From the NCBI GenBank assembly GCA_036386335.1, contig DASVVY010000021.1, forward strand, positions 738 to 64,737: a stretch of 64,000 nt of DNA, written 5' to 3'. Source of the DNA: Allosphingosinicella sp. (GTDB lineage Bacteria > Pseudomonadota > Alphaproteobacteria > Sphingomonadales > Sphingomonadaceae). Under the pieces are notes generated by a model. That model made no database searches. It saw only the letters and a list, made by a program, of their open reading frames with translations, and was not told the origin of the DNA. Position numbers and translations under genes: made by a program. Shown piece after piece: positions 3,665 through 64,000 of this stretch; position 1 is the first letter of the stretch, and each line of letters opens with the position of its first letter.

Positions 3665-3994
3665 CTAGCGCGACCAGACCAGCTTCAGCGGCTTGCGTTT
3701 CGGCGCCTGCGCCCGCGCCCGGGCGACCGCATCCGCGAGGCGGCAGTCGCCGATGTGGGCCACCTGCAGCCCGCGCAGGCCGTGGCGGCGGAGCGCCTGC
3801 TGCCAGCTCGCGAATTCCTCGAGCGTCAGGCGATAACGCGCGAGCGCCTCGTCGAGCGTGAGCCGGCCCTGCCGGACCGCCTCCACCACCTGGGCCTTGC
3901 GCCGTGCCACCCACCGGGTCGTCGGCGGCGGCAGCTTCTCGGCCTTGTCGCCTCCCTCGGGCGCCGCCTTCCGGCTGTTCGAAACGTCGTTCAT
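3665..3994 (-). CDS. sciP: DUF1153 / SciP-like CtrA inhibitor
   Basis: LPPPTTRWVARRKAQVVEAV...YRLTLEEFASWQ...HGLRGL signature. Confidence 0.8.
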   Translation of the reverse strand: MNDVSNSRKAAPEGGDKAEKLPPPTTRWVARRKAQVVEAVRQGRLTLDEALARYRLTLEEFASWQQALRRHGLRGLQVAHIGDCRLADAVARARAQAPKRKPLKLVWSR

Positions 3995-4045
3995 CGGGGC
4001 CTCCTGCGTGGCCCCACCCGCTAGGCGCGATCATGGCCTGACAAG

Positions 4046-4668: not shown

Positions 4669-5473
4669 GCTCGCCACCCGGCTCCAGCTCGCGATCGAAC
4701 GCGGCGAGATCTTCCTTCACTACCAGCCCAAGCTTCATCTGAGCTCGGGCATCGTCACCGGCGTCGAGGCGCTGGCGCGGTGGGAGGATGCGGAGCTCGG
4801 GCCGATCGAGCCCGCCGCCTTCGTGCCCGTCGCCGAGCGCTACGGCCTGATCGACGCGCTGACCGAGTGCGTCTTCCGCTGCGCCACCAGCCAGTGGCTC
4901 GCCTGGCAGGACCAGGGCATCAAGGTCCACCTTGCGATCAACATCTCGGCGCTGAGCCTGCGCGACGTCTACCTGCCCGACTACATCCAGCGCGTCTGCA
5001 TGCGCGAGGGCATGCCCTGCGATCACCTCACCGTCGAAGTGACCGAGAGCGCGACCCAGAACGTCGTGCGCCTGCTCGACACCCTCACCCGCTTCCGGCT
5101 GAAGGGGATCAGCGTCTCGCTCGACGATTTCGGCACCGGCTATTCCTCGCTGCTGCAGCTGCGCCAGCTTCCCTACACCGAGATCAAGATCGACCAGTGC
5201 TTCGTGAAGGACGCCGCCCGCTCCGAGGATTCGCGGCTGATCGTCAAGGCGATCGTCGACCTCGCCCACGCCATGGGCCTGATCGCCACCGCGGAAGGCG
5301 TCGAGGACCTCGACACGCTGAAGCTGCTGCGCGATCTCGGCTGCGACGACGTCCAGGGCTTCATCGTCTCGCCGCCGCTCGCCGGCACCGCGTTCGCCGA
5401 ATGGCTGATGAGCTTCGCGCCCCCGGACCGGGGCGGGGCGCTCACCGCGCCGAGGAGCGCGGTGATCGTCTGA
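4640..5473 (+). CDS. EAL-domain c-di-GMP phosphodiesterase
   Basis: YQPK, EAL, INIS, EVTES, DDFGTGYSS, IKID, EGVE, QGF all present; own GGAGG RBS. Confidence 0.92.
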   Translation: MRLTSVSDPELATRLQLAIERGEIFLHYQPKLHLSSGIVTGVEALARWEDAELGPIEPAAFVPVAERYGLIDALTECVFRCATSQWLAWQDQGIKVHLAINISALSLRDVYLPDYIQRVCMREGMPCDHLTVEVTESATQNVVRLLDTLTRFRLKGISVSLDDFGTGYSSLLQLRQLPYTEIKIDQCFVKDAARSEDSRLIVKAIVDLAHAMGLIATAEGVEDLDTLKLLRDLGCDDVQGFIVSPPLAGTAFAEWLMSFAPPDRGGALTAPRSAVIV

Positions 5474-5476
5474 GCG

Positions 5477-5899
5477 TCAGTCGCGGCGCAGCGAATCCCG
5501 GATCTCGCGCAGGACGAGGAGCTCGTCGCTCGGCGCCGGGCTCGCCGCCTCCGCCGGCTTCGAGCCCCGCGCCGCGGCCTTCACCAGCTGGTAGATGATG
5601 AAGGCGAGGATCAGGAAGTTGACGACCGCGGTCAGGAACTGGCCGTAGCCGAACATCGCCACCCCCGCCTCCTTGAGCGCGGCATAGCTGGTCGGGTCGC
5701 CCCTGAAGCCCGCCGGGATCGGGCCCAGGCGGACGAAATAATTGGAGAAGTCGAGGCCGCCGAAGACCGCGCCGACCAGCGGCATGATGATGTCGTCGGT
5801 GAGCGAGGTGACGATCGTGGCGAACGCCGCGCCGATGATCACCGCCACCGCGAGATCGAGCACGTTGCCGCGCGCGACGAATTGCCGGAATCCTGCCAT
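5477..5899 (-). CDS. mscL: Large-conductance mechanosensitive channel
   Basis: FVARGNVLDLAVAVIIGAAF...YGQFLTAVVNFLI...LLVLREIRDSL. Confidence 0.95.
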   Translation of the reverse strand: MAGFRQFVARGNVLDLAVAVIIGAAFATIVTSLTDDIIMPLVGAVFGGLDFSNYFVRLGPIPAGFRGDPTSYAALKEAGVAMFGYGQFLTAVVNFLILAFIIYQLVKAAARGSKPAEAASPAPSDELLVLREIRDSLRRD

Positions 5900-6070
5900 T
5901 GCCTCTCTCCCCCTCCCCTGTCGCGGCACGCCGCAGGCGCCAAGACTACCCTTCCCGGCGCCTTCCGCCAAGCGGACGTCCCGCGTGGGGCTTTCCGTTC
6001 ACCTCCTGTTGCTTTTCGCGGGGCTAAAAACGCGGTAAAGCCTCGTCACATCAGACAGCAGGATTTCCCG

Positions 6071-7414
6071 ATGACCAAGAATCTCTTCCGCTCGCTGGGG
6101 CTGGTCGCCGCGGTGGCGATCGTTCCCGCCGCGACCGCGGCGCTGGCGGCGGTGGACAGCGAGACCTATCGCGAGTTCGACCAGTTCATGAGCGTGTTCG
6201 AGCGGGTGCGCGCCCAATATGTCGATCAGGTCGACGACAAGACGCTGATGCGCGGCGCCATCGACGGCATGCTCAACAGCCTCGATCCGCACAGCTCCTA
6301 TCTCGACGAGCGCGGCTACGAGTCGCTGATGACCCAGACCGACGGCGAATATGGCGGGCTCGGCCTCAACGTCACGCTCGAGGACGGCGCCGTGAAGATC
6401 GTCGCGCCGATCGAGGATTCGCCCGGCGACAAGGCCGGCATCAAGGCCGGCGACTATATCAGCCACCTCAACGGCAAGCTTATCTACGGCGGCACGCTGG
6501 ACGAGGCCGTCGACCAGATGCGCGGCGCCCCCGGCACGACCATCCGCCTCACCATCATCCGCCCCGGCCGCGACAAGCCGTTCGACGTCAGCGTCACCCG
6601 CGCCATCGTCGAGCTGCCGGCGGTCAAGTGGGAGGTGAAGGACCGGGTCGGCGTCATCAACGTCAACACCTTCAGCCGCACCACCACCCAGGAGACGCTG
6701 GCGGCGATCAGCGGCATCGAGAAGTCTCTCGGCGGGCAGCCGCTCGGCTATGTCCTCGATCTTCGCTCGAACCCGGGCGGGCTCCTCGACCAGGCGGTCG
6801 GCCTCTCCGACGTCTTCCTCGAGCGCGGCGAGGTCGTCTCGCAGCGCGGCCGCCGCAAGGGCGACATCGAGCGCTATTACGCTCAGCCCGGCGACGCCGC
6901 CCGCGGCCTCCCGGTCGTGATCCTCGTCGATTCGGGCACCGCTTCGGCGGCCGAGATCGTCGCCGCCGCTCTCCAGGACCACCACCGCGCGGTCGTGATG
7001 GGGGAGCGCAGCTTCGGCAAGGGCTCGGTGCAGACCCTGCTGCCGCTCAGCGAGAAGACGGCGCTGAGGCTCACCACCGCCCGCTACTACACGCCGTCCG
7101 GCCGGTCCGTGCAGGAAGGCGGCATCACCCCGGACATCGAGGTGCCCCAGCTTTCCGACCCCGACTACAAGAGCCGGCCCAAGCTGCGCGAGGCGGACCT
7201 GCGCCGCCACCTGATCAACGAGATCAAGGTGGACGAGGCGGTGATCACCGAGGACGGCAAGCCCGATCCGCGCTTCGCCGCCACGCCGGACGAGCTGAAG
7301 AAGAAGGGGATCGAGGACTTCCAGCTGCATTACGCGCTGCAGACCCTGACCCGCCTCGGCCGCACCAATGTGGCCGCGAAGCCGGCGGCGCCGGCACGGA
7401 CCGGCACGCGCTGA
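6071..7414 (+). CDS. ctpA: S41 carboxyl-terminal processing protease with PDZ domain
   Basis: LDPHSSY, GLGLNV (PDZ), LDLRSNPGGLL, TASAAEIVA, SFGKGSVQT, RLTTARYYTPSG. Confidence 0.93.
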   Translation: MTKNLFRSLGLVAAVAIVPAATAALAAVDSETYREFDQFMSVFERVRAQYVDQVDDKTLMRGAIDGMLNSLDPHSSYLDERGYESLMTQTDGEYGGLGLNVTLEDGAVKIVAPIEDSPGDKAGIKAGDYISHLNGKLIYGGTLDEAVDQMRGAPGTTIRLTIIRPGRDKPFDVSVTRAIVELPAVKWEVKDRVGVINVNTFSRTTTQETLAAISGIEKSLGGQPLGYVLDLRSNPGGLLDQAVGLSDVFLERGEVVSQRGRRKGDIERYYAQPGDAARGLPVVILVDSGTASAAEIVAAALQDHHRAVVMGERSFGKGSVQTLLPLSEKTALRLTTARYYTPSGRSVQEGGITPDIEVPQLSDPDYKSRPKLREADLRRHLINEIKVDEAVITEDGKPDPRFAATPDELKKKGIEDFQLHYALQTLTRLGRTNVAAKPAAPARTGTR

Positions 7415-60699: not shown

Positions 60700-60726
60700 A
60701 GCGTTAACGCCGTCACGTGCAGGCCC

Positions 60727-61215
60727 TCAGCCGAGGAAGCGTACGGCGCCGTGGACCCTGATGCTCGAACCGGCGTCCGGCGGGATGTCGGCGAGGAGCC
60801 GGCAGGGAACACCCATATCTTCCCCCTGCACGATTTCGATATGCCCGCCGTGGGGCCAGCCGAGGTCGCGAAGATAGCCCGCCAGCGCGGCCGCCGCCGC
60901 TCCCGTTGCCGGATCCTCGTACACGCCCCCGGCGGCGAACGGATTGCGCGACTGGAAAAGCGTGGGCGATGCGGCGTGCACCAGGCTGACGGTCGCAAGG
61001 CCCCAGCCCTTCATCAGGCAGGCGCCCGCTTCGAAATCGTACCGCATGGCCGCGAGCGCGCTGCGCTCGCGGAGCGCCACGAGCAGATGCCGCGCTCCGG
61101 CCTCGATGAAAGCGGGCGGAAGGCGCGGCTCGAGATCCTGCGCGGCCAAGGAAAACAGGTCCAAGGCGGCTGCGATGTCCTCGGCGCCTGCGGGCTCGCT
61201 CCGCGTGGGGGGCGA
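60727..61215 (-). pseudogene. PhzF-family isomerase, 3' half only
   Basis: RNPFAAGGVYEDPATGAAAAAL, IVQGEDMG; N-terminal half (F..NP, CGHAT) absent. Confidence 0.85.
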
Positions 61216-61495
61216 GATTGTAGTGGTCGATCTCGCGCGCGACGCGGCGGCTCCCCTCCAATCGAACTATTTCCATTTTGGAAACGGTTGCCTTCGGATC
61301 GAGCTCGCCCTGCTCGAATATGTTCCCGATGTGCTTCGACACGGCGGGAACGTTAACCCCGAAGAGGTCAGCGATCTGCTGCTGAGTCGCCCAAACCGCC
61401 TCATGGGACCAGTCAACATTTAGATCGACAGCGGCGTTCTCGCCGTTGAATCGGACTAGCTCAAGGTCGATCTGCTCTGCTCCGGTGACAAGAGC
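61214..61495 (-). pseudogene. RhuM-family DNA-binding protein fragment
   Basis: VWATQQQIADLFGVNVPAVSKHIGNIFEQGEL...EG.R.V.R.IDHYNL, truncated before the expected D.IISVGYRV. Confidence 0.85.
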
Positions 61496-61509
61496 GGCAC
61501 TAATATACT

Positions 61510-61922
61510 TCACTCAGTAGCGGGTGCGAGCCCAAGCCGCTTCTCTAGCTGCCGGAGGATTCGATGATACCTCCCACGCTCCCTTTCCGCGACCTCGCGA
61601 TTGCAGCCTCCCGTCCGCAAGATCGACGCCTCCTCCTGCTCGGCGAGCCTTTTTGTCTCGGCTTCGAGGTCAGTAAACCGGCTCCCCTCCCGCCGTATTA
61701 GCTCAGCGCGGCTTCTGTCGCGTCTCGCCATCGCCTGCTCCTGCATCCTTACATATCGAGGATGCGCGGGACCGAAGGGGCGCGCTGCTGGAATGCAGCC
61801 CCACGCGGTCCTGCCCGTGTCGAAAAGGTGAACGTACAGCTCCAGGTCCGACTGAACTGAACGAGTCCCTATTGTAGATGCGCAGCCCGCCAAGGCGATT
61901 AACAGATCAGCAACTTGTGCAT
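61510..61922 (-). pseudogene. Lipoprotein gene with 1-nt frameshift in its signal peptide
   Basis: AAGGAA RBS, ATG CAC AAG TTG CTG ATC TGT TAA; one extra T restores MHKLLICLIALAGC. Confidence 0.6.
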
Positions 61923-62194
61923 GCCGGGTTCCTTCGAACGCCGATCCTACTAAGAAAAAGGGGCCCGCCGAAGCGACCTTTGCCGCGCTAGAACGGATCA
62001 TCCTGCCACGGATCGCCGAACCCCATATCCTCCGGCTGACAGACTGAAACGTGCAACTTAGTCACTGTCCGGGTTTCCACGTCCACAGTAAAGAGCAGCT
62101 TGTAAGACGAAAAACCTTGGTGCCTTTGTCCTTGATGCGCAGCCTGGTCTTGGCAACCCTGATTTGCGAGTTAATCGCTAGCGGCGGAAAGGCG

Positions 62195-63202
62195 GGCGAT
62201 TAAGTACTTGTTTGGACCACGCGGCCGTGCTACATACCCGGCATGGACAGCATCAGCCTCATGGATCTCACCCGCTTCCTCGCCGACGAAGCCGCCGCTC
62301 AGCAAGCTTTGGCAAATTTGCGGTGGCCGAACGGCGTTGAATGCCCGCTCTGCCACGGCGGCAAGAAGGTGTACGAGGTTAAGTACGTTCGCCGCGACGC
62401 GCGCACCGGCGAGGTCAAGCCGAGCGTCCGCAAGCAGTGGAAGTGCGGCGCGTGCCGGAAGAAGTTTTCCGTCACGACCGGCTCCATTTTTGAAGGTGCT
62501 CATACCCCGGTCGGGAAGTGGATCTACGCTATCCACCTCATGTGTTCGTCCAAGAAGGGCGTAAGCGCCAATCAGCTCAGCCGCACCCTCGAGATCAGCT
62601 ATAAGAGCGCCTGGTTCATGTGCCACCGCGTCCGCGAGGCGATGCTACAGGAGCCTCTGGCGGGGATGCTCGGCAAGGGGCCGGATGCCATCGTAGAGTT
62701 GGACGAAACCTACGTGGGCGGGAAAAAGAAGAACAACCGCCACGCCAACCGCACCCACAAGGCCGGTCAGAAAACCGCCGTCATGACCCTGATCGACCGT
62801 GAGGGCGACGTTAAGACCGTCAAGGTCGAAAACGTCCGCAAGGGCACCCTTCAGGCGCTGGCGAAGCCTATCGTGGACCGCTCAGCGAACATCGTGACCG
62901 ACGCCCATCTCTCCTATGAGGGGCTTGATCAGCACTTCCACAGCCATCATGTGGTGGACCACAGCCGCACCTATGTGCGGGGGGTGATCTTCCACACGAA
63001 CTTCGCCGAGAGCTATCACAGCCTCCTGAAGCGCGGCATCATCGGCACCTTCCACCACGTGAGCGACAAGCACCTGCCGCGGTATCTGGCGGAGTTCGAC
63101 CGCCGCTGGAACACTCGCAAAGCCACCGATGGCCAGAGCACTGTCAACGTTATCAAAGCCGCTCCTGGCAAGCGGCTGACCTACGAAGCGACCACCGCTT
63201 AA
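62195..63202 (+). mobile_element. IS1595-family element (minimum extent; right end not found in window)
   Basis: Left IR-like GGCGATTAAGTACTT 48 nt before the transposase; resembles the ISNwi1-group end motif as I recall it. Confidence 0.8.
62243..63202 (+). CDS. IS1595-family (ISXO2-like) DDE transposase
   Basis: Zn ribbon RWPNGVECPLC...WKCGAC, HTH, VELDETYVGG, IVTD, HTNFAESYHSLLKRG, RYLAEF. Confidence 0.95.
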   Translation: MDSISLMDLTRFLADEAAAQQALANLRWPNGVECPLCHGGKKVYEVKYVRRDARTGEVKPSVRKQWKCGACRKKFSVTTGSIFEGAHTPVGKWIYAIHLMCSSKKGVSANQLSRTLEISYKSAWFMCHRVREAMLQEPLAGMLGKGPDAIVELDETYVGGKKKNNRHANRTHKAGQKTAVMTLIDREGDVKTVKVENVRKGTLQALAKPIVDRSANIVTDAHLSYEGLDQHFHSHHVVDHSRTYVRGVIFHTNFAESYHSLLKRGIIGTFHHVSDKHLPRYLAEFDRRWNTRKATDGQSTVNVIKAAPGKRLTYEATTA

Positions 63203-63349
63203 GGATCGTGACCCTCGTTGGGCTTGTGGTTGGATTTTCAGTTGGATTTGACCAACAAGTGTGTTGGGCGATTTGTGGATGATTTTAGGAGAAATTTAGC
63301 GTCCGGACCATTATATGGGTCATGCGTTGGAGGCGATGAAAAACAGCGC

Positions 63350-63441
63350 GCCTGCCCGATAGGGTCCTGCGATAGCAGGGGCAACAGGCTTTCGCGAGGG
63401 GTTCGGCCCCGGAAAGTAGCCCCTTCGGGGGCTATTTTTTT
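63350..63441 (+). ncRNA. Candidate structured ncRNA (three-way junction, hairpin, terminator)
   Basis: Base pairings listed in findings; no credible ORF. Confidence 0.45.
63417..63441 (+). terminator. Intrinsic terminator overlapping the stop codon of the convergent gene
   Basis: TAGCCCC-TTCG-GGGGCTA followed by T7. Confidence 0.85.
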
Positions 63442-63929
63442 GACCAGCGGATTGGCTTGCCGTTGATAACGTTAGCAACGACCACTTGGAATTTCGCGCG
63501 CGGCAGACTGGGGTCGAGATTGGGCCGATGATGGGCGCTGCGAACGTCAAGCCTCGCATCAAAGCGCTTCCCCTTCACGGCTCGCAGGTTGAACACAACC
63601 AGATACGGGCCGGCGAGACCAGGAAGGGTGGTGTTCAGCACCATCGTATTCCGGCTGAGGCAGACATCCCCGTGCACTGCCGCCGCAATGGCGGCAGGGA
63701 GATGTAGAGAGTGCGCATAGCGATCTACCGAGAAAGTGCGTGGCTGGTTGCCATCCATGAAGAGGAGGTCCGGCGTATCGCCGGGTTCCACCTCTCTCGT
63801 GAAAGCATGGGCGCCGAACGCTACCTGGACGCGGTAGCCCACCCCGCCGCAGAGCACCGGCAGGAGAAACGGATCAAGGTGCCGGAGAGAATACGGCGTT
63901 CCTTGGATAATTCGAGTACCCCACGACAT
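63432..63929 (-). CDS. Hypothetical protein, candidate BECR/RelE-like RNase toxin
   Basis: W..G..YSL.HL.PF, V.F..H.FTR, R.F...RY..S..LP, Y.V.F, V.SAH.R pattern. Confidence 0.7.
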   Translation of the reverse strand: MSWGTRIIQGTPYSLRHLDPFLLPVLCGGVGYRVQVAFGAHAFTREVEPGDTPDLLFMDGNQPRTFSVDRYAHSLHLPAAIAAAVHGDVCLSRNTMVLNTTLPGLAGPYLVVFNLRAVKGKRFDARLDVRSAHHRPNLDPSLPRAKFQVVVANVINGKPIRWSKK

Positions 63930-63970
63930 CTCAGACCCCTGTTATTCAACCCACGGATGTGCTAGAAAAA

Positions 63971-64000
63971 TGTGCCCCCGCCGGGTTTCGAACCCGGACG
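63971..64000 (-). tRNA. 3' part of a tRNA or tRNA-like element (truncated by window end)
   Basis: T-stem CCGGG/CCCGG, loop TTCGAAA, acceptor strand CGGGGGC, discriminator A, no encoded CCA. Confidence 0.55.

Follow-up and report, generated by a model that had tools for sequence, protein, structure and literature searches.

A YjaZ-family gene, a convergent structured small RNA and a tRNA as predicted cargo of an IS1595-family transporter insertion sequence

The right-hand end of the 64,000-nucleotide stretch of DNA analysed here (contig DASVVY010000021.1, Allosphingosinicella sp.; hereafter the window) carries an intact transposase gene of the IS1595 family, a structured small RNA (sRNA) on the same strand, a 165-aa open reading frame (ORF) of the YjaZ family that runs towards the sRNA from the opposite direction, and the 3' end of a tRNA gene (Table 1). 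An initial annotation of this DNA had read the ORF as a candidate RNA-controlled toxin or anti-phage RNase of the BECR/RelE fold, possibly travelling as passenger cargo of an IS1595 element. From comparison with related loci (designated L001, L002, and so on), we read the segment from 62195 to 64000 as the transposase-side two-thirds or so of an IS1595-family transporter insertion sequence (IS), the remainder of which would lie past the window end, and we identify the YjaZ-like ORF, the convergent sRNA, and the tRNA as its passenger cargo. The RNA and mobile-element aspects of this locus are more interesting than the proposed RNase.

Table 1. Coordinates of the features at the right-hand end of the window
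Feature	Position	Strand	Basis
Terminal inverted repeat, transposase-proximal, GGCGATTAAGTACTTGTTTGGACC	62195..62218	+	Exact match to repeat consensus
IS1595-family DDE transposase, 319 aa, intact	62243..63202	+	Pfam match
Three 11-bp-phased repeats, GGGCGATT / GGATGATT / GGAGAAAT	63266..63295	+	Read from sequence
-10-like box TTATAT, predicted sRNA promoter	63311..63316	+	Same position in most of 22 loci
Structured sRNA, ~120 nt	63320..63442	+	Covariance model R1, 124.9 bits, E=8e-32
Predicted sRNA terminator: stem TAGCCCC/GGGGCTA, loop TTCG, T7	63417..63441	+	Fold and covariation
YjaZ-family (PF27200) protein, 165 aa	63432..63929	-	PF27200 tag on all 41 homologues
Spacer between tRNA and ORF, 43 nt	63930..63972	-	Sequence and alignment
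tRNA gene, 3' 28 nt, cut by window end	63973..64000	-	Identical to this part of the full genes of L010, L012, and L030

The IS1595-family element and its cargo

The transposase matches the Pfam models DDE_Tnp_IS1595 (1.4e-33) and Zn_ribbon_IS1595 (4.6e-12), and its gene shares 73-81% nucleotide identity with the transposase genes located beside YjaZ-like genes in L012, L020, L028, L030, and L031. Overall, an IS1595-family transposase adjoins a YjaZ-like gene in L010, L012, L020, and L028-L031. Two further loci are arranged differently, as the transposase is found directly upstream of the YjaZ-like gene and on the same strand (L033 1463-2959 and L034 443-1939), with the sRNA convergent downstream all the same.

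Homology between the window and L012, L020, L028, and L031 breaks off sharply at 62193-62195. Similarly, homology among the transposase-bearing loci stops ~50 nt before the transposase gene begins, at a point where GGCGATTnnGTACTTGTTTGGACC is present in every locus (62195-62218 in the window). The same repeat occurs, inverted, at the far end of the elements of L012, L028, L030, and L031, at a distance of 2.9-3.5 kb, and these four elements are flanked by perfect 8-bp direct repeats (CGTAGAAG, GAAATTCC, CAAATAAC, and AAAATGGA). Repeats and duplications together enclose the transposase, the sRNA, and the ORF in all four relatives, and the tRNA as well in three of them (L012, L028, and L030), which are inserted at unrelated sites. 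The second inverted repeat and the target duplication were thus scored in these relatives; the second repeat of the window's own copy should be located about 2.9 kb from the first, outside the window.

In L012, L028, and L030, the first inverted repeat is followed by a ~180-aa ORF, a hairpin that covaries, the tRNA, and the YjaZ-like ORF; the sRNA and the transposase come next, both on the opposite strand, and the second inverted repeat closes the element. The ~180-aa ORF was seen in L010, L028, and L030 (42-48% identity). What the window holds of this arrangement extends from the transposase-side repeat up to the 3' end of the tRNA. In L028, another pair of repeats closely brackets the transposase and would define a short IS; we rejected this alternative because it is the outer repeats that carry the target duplications.

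These elements display a zinc-ribbon DDE transposase, inverted repeats surrounding both transposase and cargo, and an 8-bp target duplication. Such features, along with inverted repeats of ~24 bp and passenger genes unrelated to transposition, are shared with known IS1595-family transporter IS (tIS), ISNha5 among them (Siguier et al. 2009, cited in PMC11891212). The difference resides in the cargo, which here consists of two RNA genes (the tRNA and the structured sRNA) and a YjaZ-family protein. To our knowledge, no IS1595 element with such cargo has been described, and a transporter IS whose cargo is largely made of RNA genes, including a tRNA with a mismatched anticodon (see below), is unusual among insertion sequences. 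As far as anatomy alone is concerned, namely a transporter IS with the protein-sRNA pair and the tRNA as cargo, we regard this reading as highly probable; the passenger-cargo suggestion of the initial annotation is borne out by the inverted repeats and 8-bp duplications around the cargo in the four relatives.

The same boundaries bear on the most ordinary explanation of the locus, under which a host tRNA served as an insertion landmark, the ORF is a mere hypothetical gene, and the structured segment is the terminator of the transposase mRNA. tRNA genes are indeed common insertion landmarks, and the plus-strand terminator described below would end transposase transcripts too. However, in L012, L028, and L030, whose elements have inserted at unrelated sites, the repeats and duplications enclose the tRNA as well, which argues for cargo instead of a host landmark, and the view of the tRNA as an ordinary host gene acting as an att site is contradicted by the same observation. 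In addition, the sRNA promoter and covarying fold are kept in loci where the upstream neighbour is not a transposase, and the tRNA anticodon mismatches its body. We consider this explanation extremely improbable.

Individual elements and flanks provide further observations. The 2923-bp transporter IS of L028 is located between two ORFs, one at 197-1984 with a faint N6_Mtase match and the other at 4805-6295 with a Type_ISP_C match, and its insertion target appears to have been a Type ISP restriction-modification gene. The copy of an Erythrobacter metagenome-assembled genome (MAG; L001 8001-8667) has kept the tRNA, the ORF, the sRNA, and the GGCGATT repeats with no transposase and no recognisable inverted repeats, and looks like a decayed, immobilised element. 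Finally, just left of the transposon in the window, the first ~100 aa of a minus-strand frame at 60713-61513 match the PADLOC candidate-defence models PDC-S05/S23 (E=4.5e-25) and are followed by arginine-rich nonsense, while an overlapping minus-strand frame at 60727-61164 resembles, by eye, the C-terminal part of a different gene. This region looks like a broken gene junction, possibly the scar of an older mobile element.

The YjaZ-family protein and its convergent small RNA

The start codon and full length of the ORF are backed by 41 homologues from a large protein collection, aligned end to end and nearly all 160-179 aa long. All of them (41/41), including the window's own product (P0004), carry a precomputed PF27200 tag, and the window ORF shares 26% identity over 139 residues with E. 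coli YjaZ (BLASTP, E=1e-4), whose only functional label, an earlier heat-shock designation, has been retracted (PMC11551758). When searching 1.8 billion representatives with a profile, we retrieved 1014 clusters at 50% identity (E<=1e-3), nearly all of them stand-alone proteins of 160-190 aa. Within the genome collection, the gene was found in only two species genomes, and neither the GenBank phage collection nor IMG/VR yielded any YjaZ-like relative.

The RNase proposal relied on the motifs H.FTR, RY..S..LP, and SAHHR, and held that the antitoxin of a BECR/RelE-fold toxin could be the antisense RNA, or the tRNA-like element acting as a decoy. Its conserved His, Arg, and Tyr motifs do exist: the alignment of the 41 homologues contains invariant columns at H17, H41, T44, R64, R70, S74, and Y109 and near-invariant ones at H133 and R135, forming the motifs H41-x-F-T44, R70-Y-x-H-S74-L-x-L-P, and S-A-H133-H-R135. 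Such His/Arg/Ser/Tyr columns would fit nucleic-acid binding or catalysis. Moreover, RNA elements flank the ORF on both sides, no protein partner adjoins it in the window, and the gene is mobile-element cargo, all of which the proposal had anticipated. However, the AlphaFold model is confident (pLDDT 92.3, pTM 0.85) and shows a mostly beta protein of about 13 strands and three helices, with no hydrophobic helix, for which Foldseek found no structural neighbour in the PDB (best E=0.49, TM <0.3); no BECR, RelE, barnase, colicin, or EndoU fold occurs among the 50 PDB matches listed. With some 13 strands in 165 aa, the protein also departs from the ~95-aa RelE core. The ORF matched no profile in Pfam, NCBIfam, PADLOC, or PHROGs (the local Pfam copy being older than the PF27200 model), nor any PDB sequence in a profile search that allowed E values up to 10, and most loci that keep the protein-sRNA pair lack the tRNA. 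An RNase toxin of this type is thus very unlikely. The motifs stand as some of the most conserved columns of the family, but not as a mark of the BECR/RelE fold, and the predicted YjaZ-like fold would be either new or not yet solved.

On the other side of the stop codon, about 115 nt stay conserved in every relative with enough sequence, despite differing neighbours. The initial annotation had noticed that this structured segment is convergent with the ORF, which its covariance and the R1 score confirm. The sRNA is present in 21 of the 21 loci with sequence beyond the ORF, namely the window and 20 metagenome or MAG loci with 37-87% protein identity, and R1 scores range from 76 to 125 bits across these 20 loci. 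R1 also detects it beside homologues of ~31% identity in two cultured strains, with 41 bits on a plasmid of Rhizobium sp. TH2 and 32 bits on one of Roseinatronobacter sp. S2, where the sRNA occupies the same position relative to the ORF. Of the two flanking RNAs that were expected to be conserved among homologue loci, the sRNA thus is, while the tRNA is absent from most of them.

The predicted structure comprises a hairpin, P1, whose conserved loop contains GGCGAUGA, a three-way junction (P2/P2a/P2b) with hairpin loops alternating between GNRA and UUCG among loci, and a 3' part in which a variable hairpin, P3, is followed by an intrinsic terminator. RNAalifold proposes 31 pairs, 21 of which show compensatory double changes. 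In a hand-made alignment, 96.1% of the cells are paired, as compared with 44-53% when partners are slid by 1-3 columns; covarying pairs number 21, versus 3-7 in the slid controls, and 0/500 shuffles attain any observed measure. The strand is fixed by G-U pairs, one of which occurs in 17-18 sequences and turns into A-C if the opposite strand is read, indicating that the plus strand is the transcribed one. The fold of the window segment taken as a single sequence equals the consensus structure (z=-3.0). The RNA is single-copy and contains no tandem repeats, and no Rfam family matches it, either in the window or in the related loci. Strong covariation, a conserved promoter and terminator, and the lack of an Rfam match lead us to consider the convergent segment as a previously undescribed family of structured sRNAs.

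The putative sRNA promoter has the form TTGnnn-N16-18-TAnnnn, at a fixed distance, in 14 of 22 loci. Copies of the transposon (IS-type) subgroup have the -10 box without a TTG -35 element and carry phased GGCGATT repeats instead. These repeats, which are located just upstream of the sRNA -10 box and are conserved in L001, L010, L012, L028, and L030, resemble the GGCGATT tip of the inverted repeat. They are possibly binding sites for the transposase or a regulator, and may link sRNA transcription to the transposase.

The terminator stem (63417-63434, followed by T7 at 63435-63441) covaries across loci, from CCCC/GGGG to CUCC/GGAG to GCCC/GGGC. As noticed initially, the ORF ends within it: the stop codon (63432-63434) lies inside the 3' arm of the plus-strand hairpin, and the T7 tract is complementary to the two closing Lys codons (AAA AAA) together with one base of the Ser codon. 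Almost all loci share the ORF end AAA/AAG-AAA-TAG, and the sRNA and the ORF have a fixed overlap of 11 nt. The shared hairpin probably works as a bidirectional terminator. A simple promoter and terminator scan flagged nothing here, and the hairpin was brought to light by fold and covariation; as that scan missed a textbook hairpin followed by T7, its negatives need caution.

A layout resembling an aptamer followed by a terminator raises the possibility that the RNA is a sensor or attenuator, whose junction would bind a ligand or the YjaZ protein itself and thereby set terminator efficiency, read-through producing an antisense transcript across the whole ORF that tunes a non-toxic accessory protein. 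The junction nucleotides are conserved, ORF antisense is all that lies downstream in the sense of the RNA, and stop codon and terminator overlap almost everywhere, as this explanation would predict. On the other hand, no anti-terminator pairing was seen, the variable P3 separates the junction from the terminator, no Rfam riboswitch matches, and a hairpin followed by U7 looks constitutively strong. Such a sensor is unlikely in our view.

The cargo tRNA

The minus strand of 63973-64000 reads CGTCCGGGTTCGAAACCCGGCGGGGGCA and corresponds to a tRNA from the last part of its variable arm through the T arm and the 3' acceptor strand to A73. The initial annotation was right about this tRNA-like 3' end, its TTCGAAA T-loop, and the missing CCA: the next letters are CAT. 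The window's only complete tRNA gene, tRNA-Ala, has its CCA encoded. Full copies of the cargo tRNA in relatives are 86-88 nt long and are called by ARAGORN, which makes no call at this place because the window end cuts the gene. The portion present is identical to the genes of L010, L012, and L030 and differs at one position from those of L001 and L028. For comparison, the full copy of L029 scores 45.4 bits on the Rfam tRNA model RF00005 (gathering score 29). Default Rfam filters lost the cargo tRNA in larger searches and a 160-nt search recovered it, so that these losses are a filter artefact, and the negatives of Rfam searches over large inputs call for caution. The tRNA is almost identical in L001, L010, L012, L028, and L030, though flanks and proteins have diverged (to 47% identity), and L020 has a degenerate copy.

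According to the model alignment, the anticodon loop is U32 U33 A34 G35 G36 A37 G38 (UUAGGAG), which gives an AGG anticodon reading the Pro codon CCU. By contrast, the body looks Leu-like when judged by eye (class II, A73, D-loop GAAAUUGGUAGAC), and the predicted anticodon is at odds with it. tRNAs whose body and anticodon are mismatched are known, such as allo-tRNAs, nematode nev-tRNAs, and Streptomyces tRNAProX. The cargo tRNA shares with them a well-formed structure in which a class II, Leu-like body bears the anticodon of another amino acid, and differs from them by its canonical 7/5 cloverleaf and its location on a transposon. A mismatched tRNA borne by a transposon bears on how translation-altering tRNAs spread. 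No copy was detected in the phage collections (GenBank phages and IMG/VR), and the absence of any match among plasmids means that no host parent tRNA was traced.

Recoding of CCU to Leu was considered for the cargo genes, and rejected for these genes since CCT codons occur at invariant Pro columns. In all six transposases (window, L012, L020, L028, L030, and L031), CCT encodes Pro at two shared positions. The remaining Pro codons are CCG, apart from one lineage-specific CCT each in the window and L020, with no CCC or CCA. These invariant CCT codons are notable beside an AGG tRNA, yet L020 and L031 have no intact tRNA.

In the transposon subgroup, tRNA and ORF share a strand, and 41-43 nt separate the tRNA from the ORF downstream of it. 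The initial annotation gave the right strand and rightly saw no terminator in between, but its distance of 41 nt has to be corrected, as the spacer of the window measures 43 nt. Within this spacer, the tRNA is followed by a short U-run, and a conserved TAGC and a ribosome-binding site (AGGGG) are also present. Because this spacer has no hairpin terminator, the tRNA and the ORF are likely co-transcribed. Directly upstream of the tRNA, a hairpin of 10-12 bp was observed in L010 (~5840-5866), L028 (~2895-2920), and L030 (~3994-4020); its sequence differs in each lineage while pairing is retained. Such a hairpin could mark a site of processing or termination between the ~180-aa ORF and the tRNA.

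Such a tRNA invites the more ambitious proposal of an RNA-centred system with three parts, in which a protein of new fold, its own sRNA, and the Leu-bodied, Pro-anticodon tRNA are all functional players. The tRNA could then be a CCU mistranslator, a decoy or substrate of the protein, or a private decoder of the invariant CCU codons of the element. If true, this would represent an unknown kind of RNA-based conflict or control, and may explain the orphan yjaZ-sroH locus of E. coli (see below). We hold this three-part system to be quite improbable. In most contexts the protein-sRNA pair occurs without any tRNA, which is thus not generally required by the pair, and the idea that the tRNA is its general antitoxin fails on the same ground.

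Genomic settings and possible role of the protein-sRNA pair

As far as the sequences tell, the protein and the sRNA form an obligate pair, carried by several kinds of mobile elements: a transposon, a tyrosine-integrase island, a phage-like element, and plasmids. In the island of L003, the pair has a primase-like gene on one side and a tyrosine integrase on the other, and in L004-L009 it sits at the edge of a phage-like element. The YjaZ-like gene was also found on 25 plasmids, including some of only 4-5.5 kb, and some of these plasmid copies are close to genes for a SOS-response-associated peptidase and a toprim-domain protein, which we take to be establishment or leading-region genes.

Other clades show a second arrangement, in which the YjaZ-like gene comes second in a tight two-gene operon with an upstream partner of 162-210 aa. 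Examples are L035 2819-3881, L036 686-1748, L038 3369-4537, and L040 1982-3001, on plasmids of gamma-, beta-, and some alphaproteobacteria. The partner is of the HTH type in Ralstonia (with a 4-nt overlap) and in Roseinatronobacter, whose copy has both this partner and the sRNA, while on small Klebsiella and Kosakonia plasmids it is a protein of ~170 aa of unknown function. By analogy, the two-gene layout would be that of effector-plus-antidote or effector-plus-regulator modules.

Strict co-inheritance over such different elements could also mean that protein and sRNA make up a working ribonucleoprotein, with the RNA as scaffold or guide rather than inhibitor, which would serve the mobile element in anti-defence, target choice, or nucleic-acid modification, for example. 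The conserved single-stranded loops (such as GGCGAUGA and GGNAAGAGG) and the SOS-peptidase and toprim neighbours of some plasmid copies are consistent with this. In addition, the best viral matches of the protein model in BFVD (Foldseek) are phage polyvalent-protein domains (probability 0.9), but these matches are weak (E 0.04-0.1, TM <=0.37). Furthermore, the RNA contains no guide-like variable segment besides P3, the fixed convergent arrangement with its overlapping stop codon is left unexplained, and the partner is a protein in other clades. We consider a ribonucleoprotein improbable.

The E. coli K-12 chromosome offers the closest parallel in layout. Its yjaZ gene (b3989, formerly htrC) belongs to the same protein family, PF27200, and the sRNA sroH (RF00372), encoded on the opposite strand, is convergent with it, its end being 1 nt away from the yjaZ stop codon; no function is known for either partner. 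This locus differs by its chromosomal position, flanked by rpoC and the thi operon, and by its lack of a transposase and a tRNA. The RF00372 model has no match on the window (E up to 1) or, at its gathering score, on 13 related loci. Conversely, R1 run on sroH with filters off gives a weak score of 12.6 bits; an AUGGCG loop motif is common to both, and sroH has no three-way junction. The two RNAs are thus not detectably homologous by these searches, and the shared layout suggests sroH as a possible E. coli counterpart of the sRNA.

The explanation we favour is that the sRNA is a dedicated partner of the YjaZ-like protein, most likely keeping it in check, and that together they would act as a selfish or conflict module complete in itself (toxin-antidote-like, defence, or addiction), which would aid the persistence of the mobile element. 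Two routes are conceivable. First, the U-tract of the shared hairpin is poor in the ORF sense (CUUUCC), so that some ORF transcripts should read through it; they would then be perfectly complementary to the sRNA and subject to antisense control, to which convergent transcription would add interference. Second, the protein may bind the folded sRNA directly, as the conserved loops and junction suggest. The settings of the pair, namely transporter-IS cargo, an integrase neighbour in an island, and plasmids, are mobile and of the conflict type. We hold the whole statement, a transposon-borne pair in which the sRNA restrains the protein as part of a selfish or conflict module, tentatively, at slightly less than an even chance; restraint of the protein by the sRNA, taken by itself, is possible and somewhat doubtful.

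Known toxin-antitoxin systems share parts of this design. In type I systems with convergent, 3'-overlapping RNAs, such as txpA/RatA and bsrG/SR4 of Bacillus subtilis, which reside on mobile elements, the 3' end of the sRNA overlaps that of the protein gene as it does here. However, their toxins are small (< ~60 aa) hydrophobic peptides, whereas the protein described here is a predicted soluble, beta-rich protein of 165 aa; the fixed 11-nt overlap and the conserved three-way junction and loops of the RNA also set it apart. Type III systems (ToxIN, CptIN, and TenpIN) similarly combine a protein with a dedicated structured RNA and are carried by mobile elements. Their antitoxin is a tandem-repeat RNA located upstream of the toxin gene, whereas the present RNA has no tandem repeats and is downstream and convergent instead of upstream and co-oriented, and the protein has no fold match to any solved structure.

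Several observations weigh against restraint by the sRNA within a conflict module. The fixed overlap is only 11 nt, and antisense pairing over a longer stretch depends on read-through; loops and junction are more strongly conserved than a simple cis-antisense RNA would require. The idea that the sRNA pairs with the ribosome-binding region of the ORF was rejected, as complementarity there is no better than in shuffles (mean z -0.27). The ORF matches no PADLOC defence model and no toxin family in Pfam or NCBIfam, and the family namesake, E. coli YjaZ, is chromosomal and is not known to be toxic. Finally, the metagenome runs that contain the window sequence, whose contigs confirm it without extending it, are all DNA runs.

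Whichever role applies, a new structured sRNA family would be tied to a widespread protein family (1014 clusters) of unknown function, and the fixed partnership of protein and RNA provides a first concrete handle on what YjaZ proteins do. As cultured strains carry the pair (on plasmid pTH2a of Rhizobium sp. TH2 and on a plasmid of Roseinatronobacter sp. S2), these ideas are directly testable.

One neighbourhood was seen twice. In L002, a Hyphomicrobiales MAG, a TPP riboswitch is located at 2568-2708 on the plus strand, ~500 nt downstream of the YjaZ-like gene, and in E. coli (L011, from 4736) yjaZ adjoins the thiamine operon; this thiamine-linked vicinity may be coincidental.

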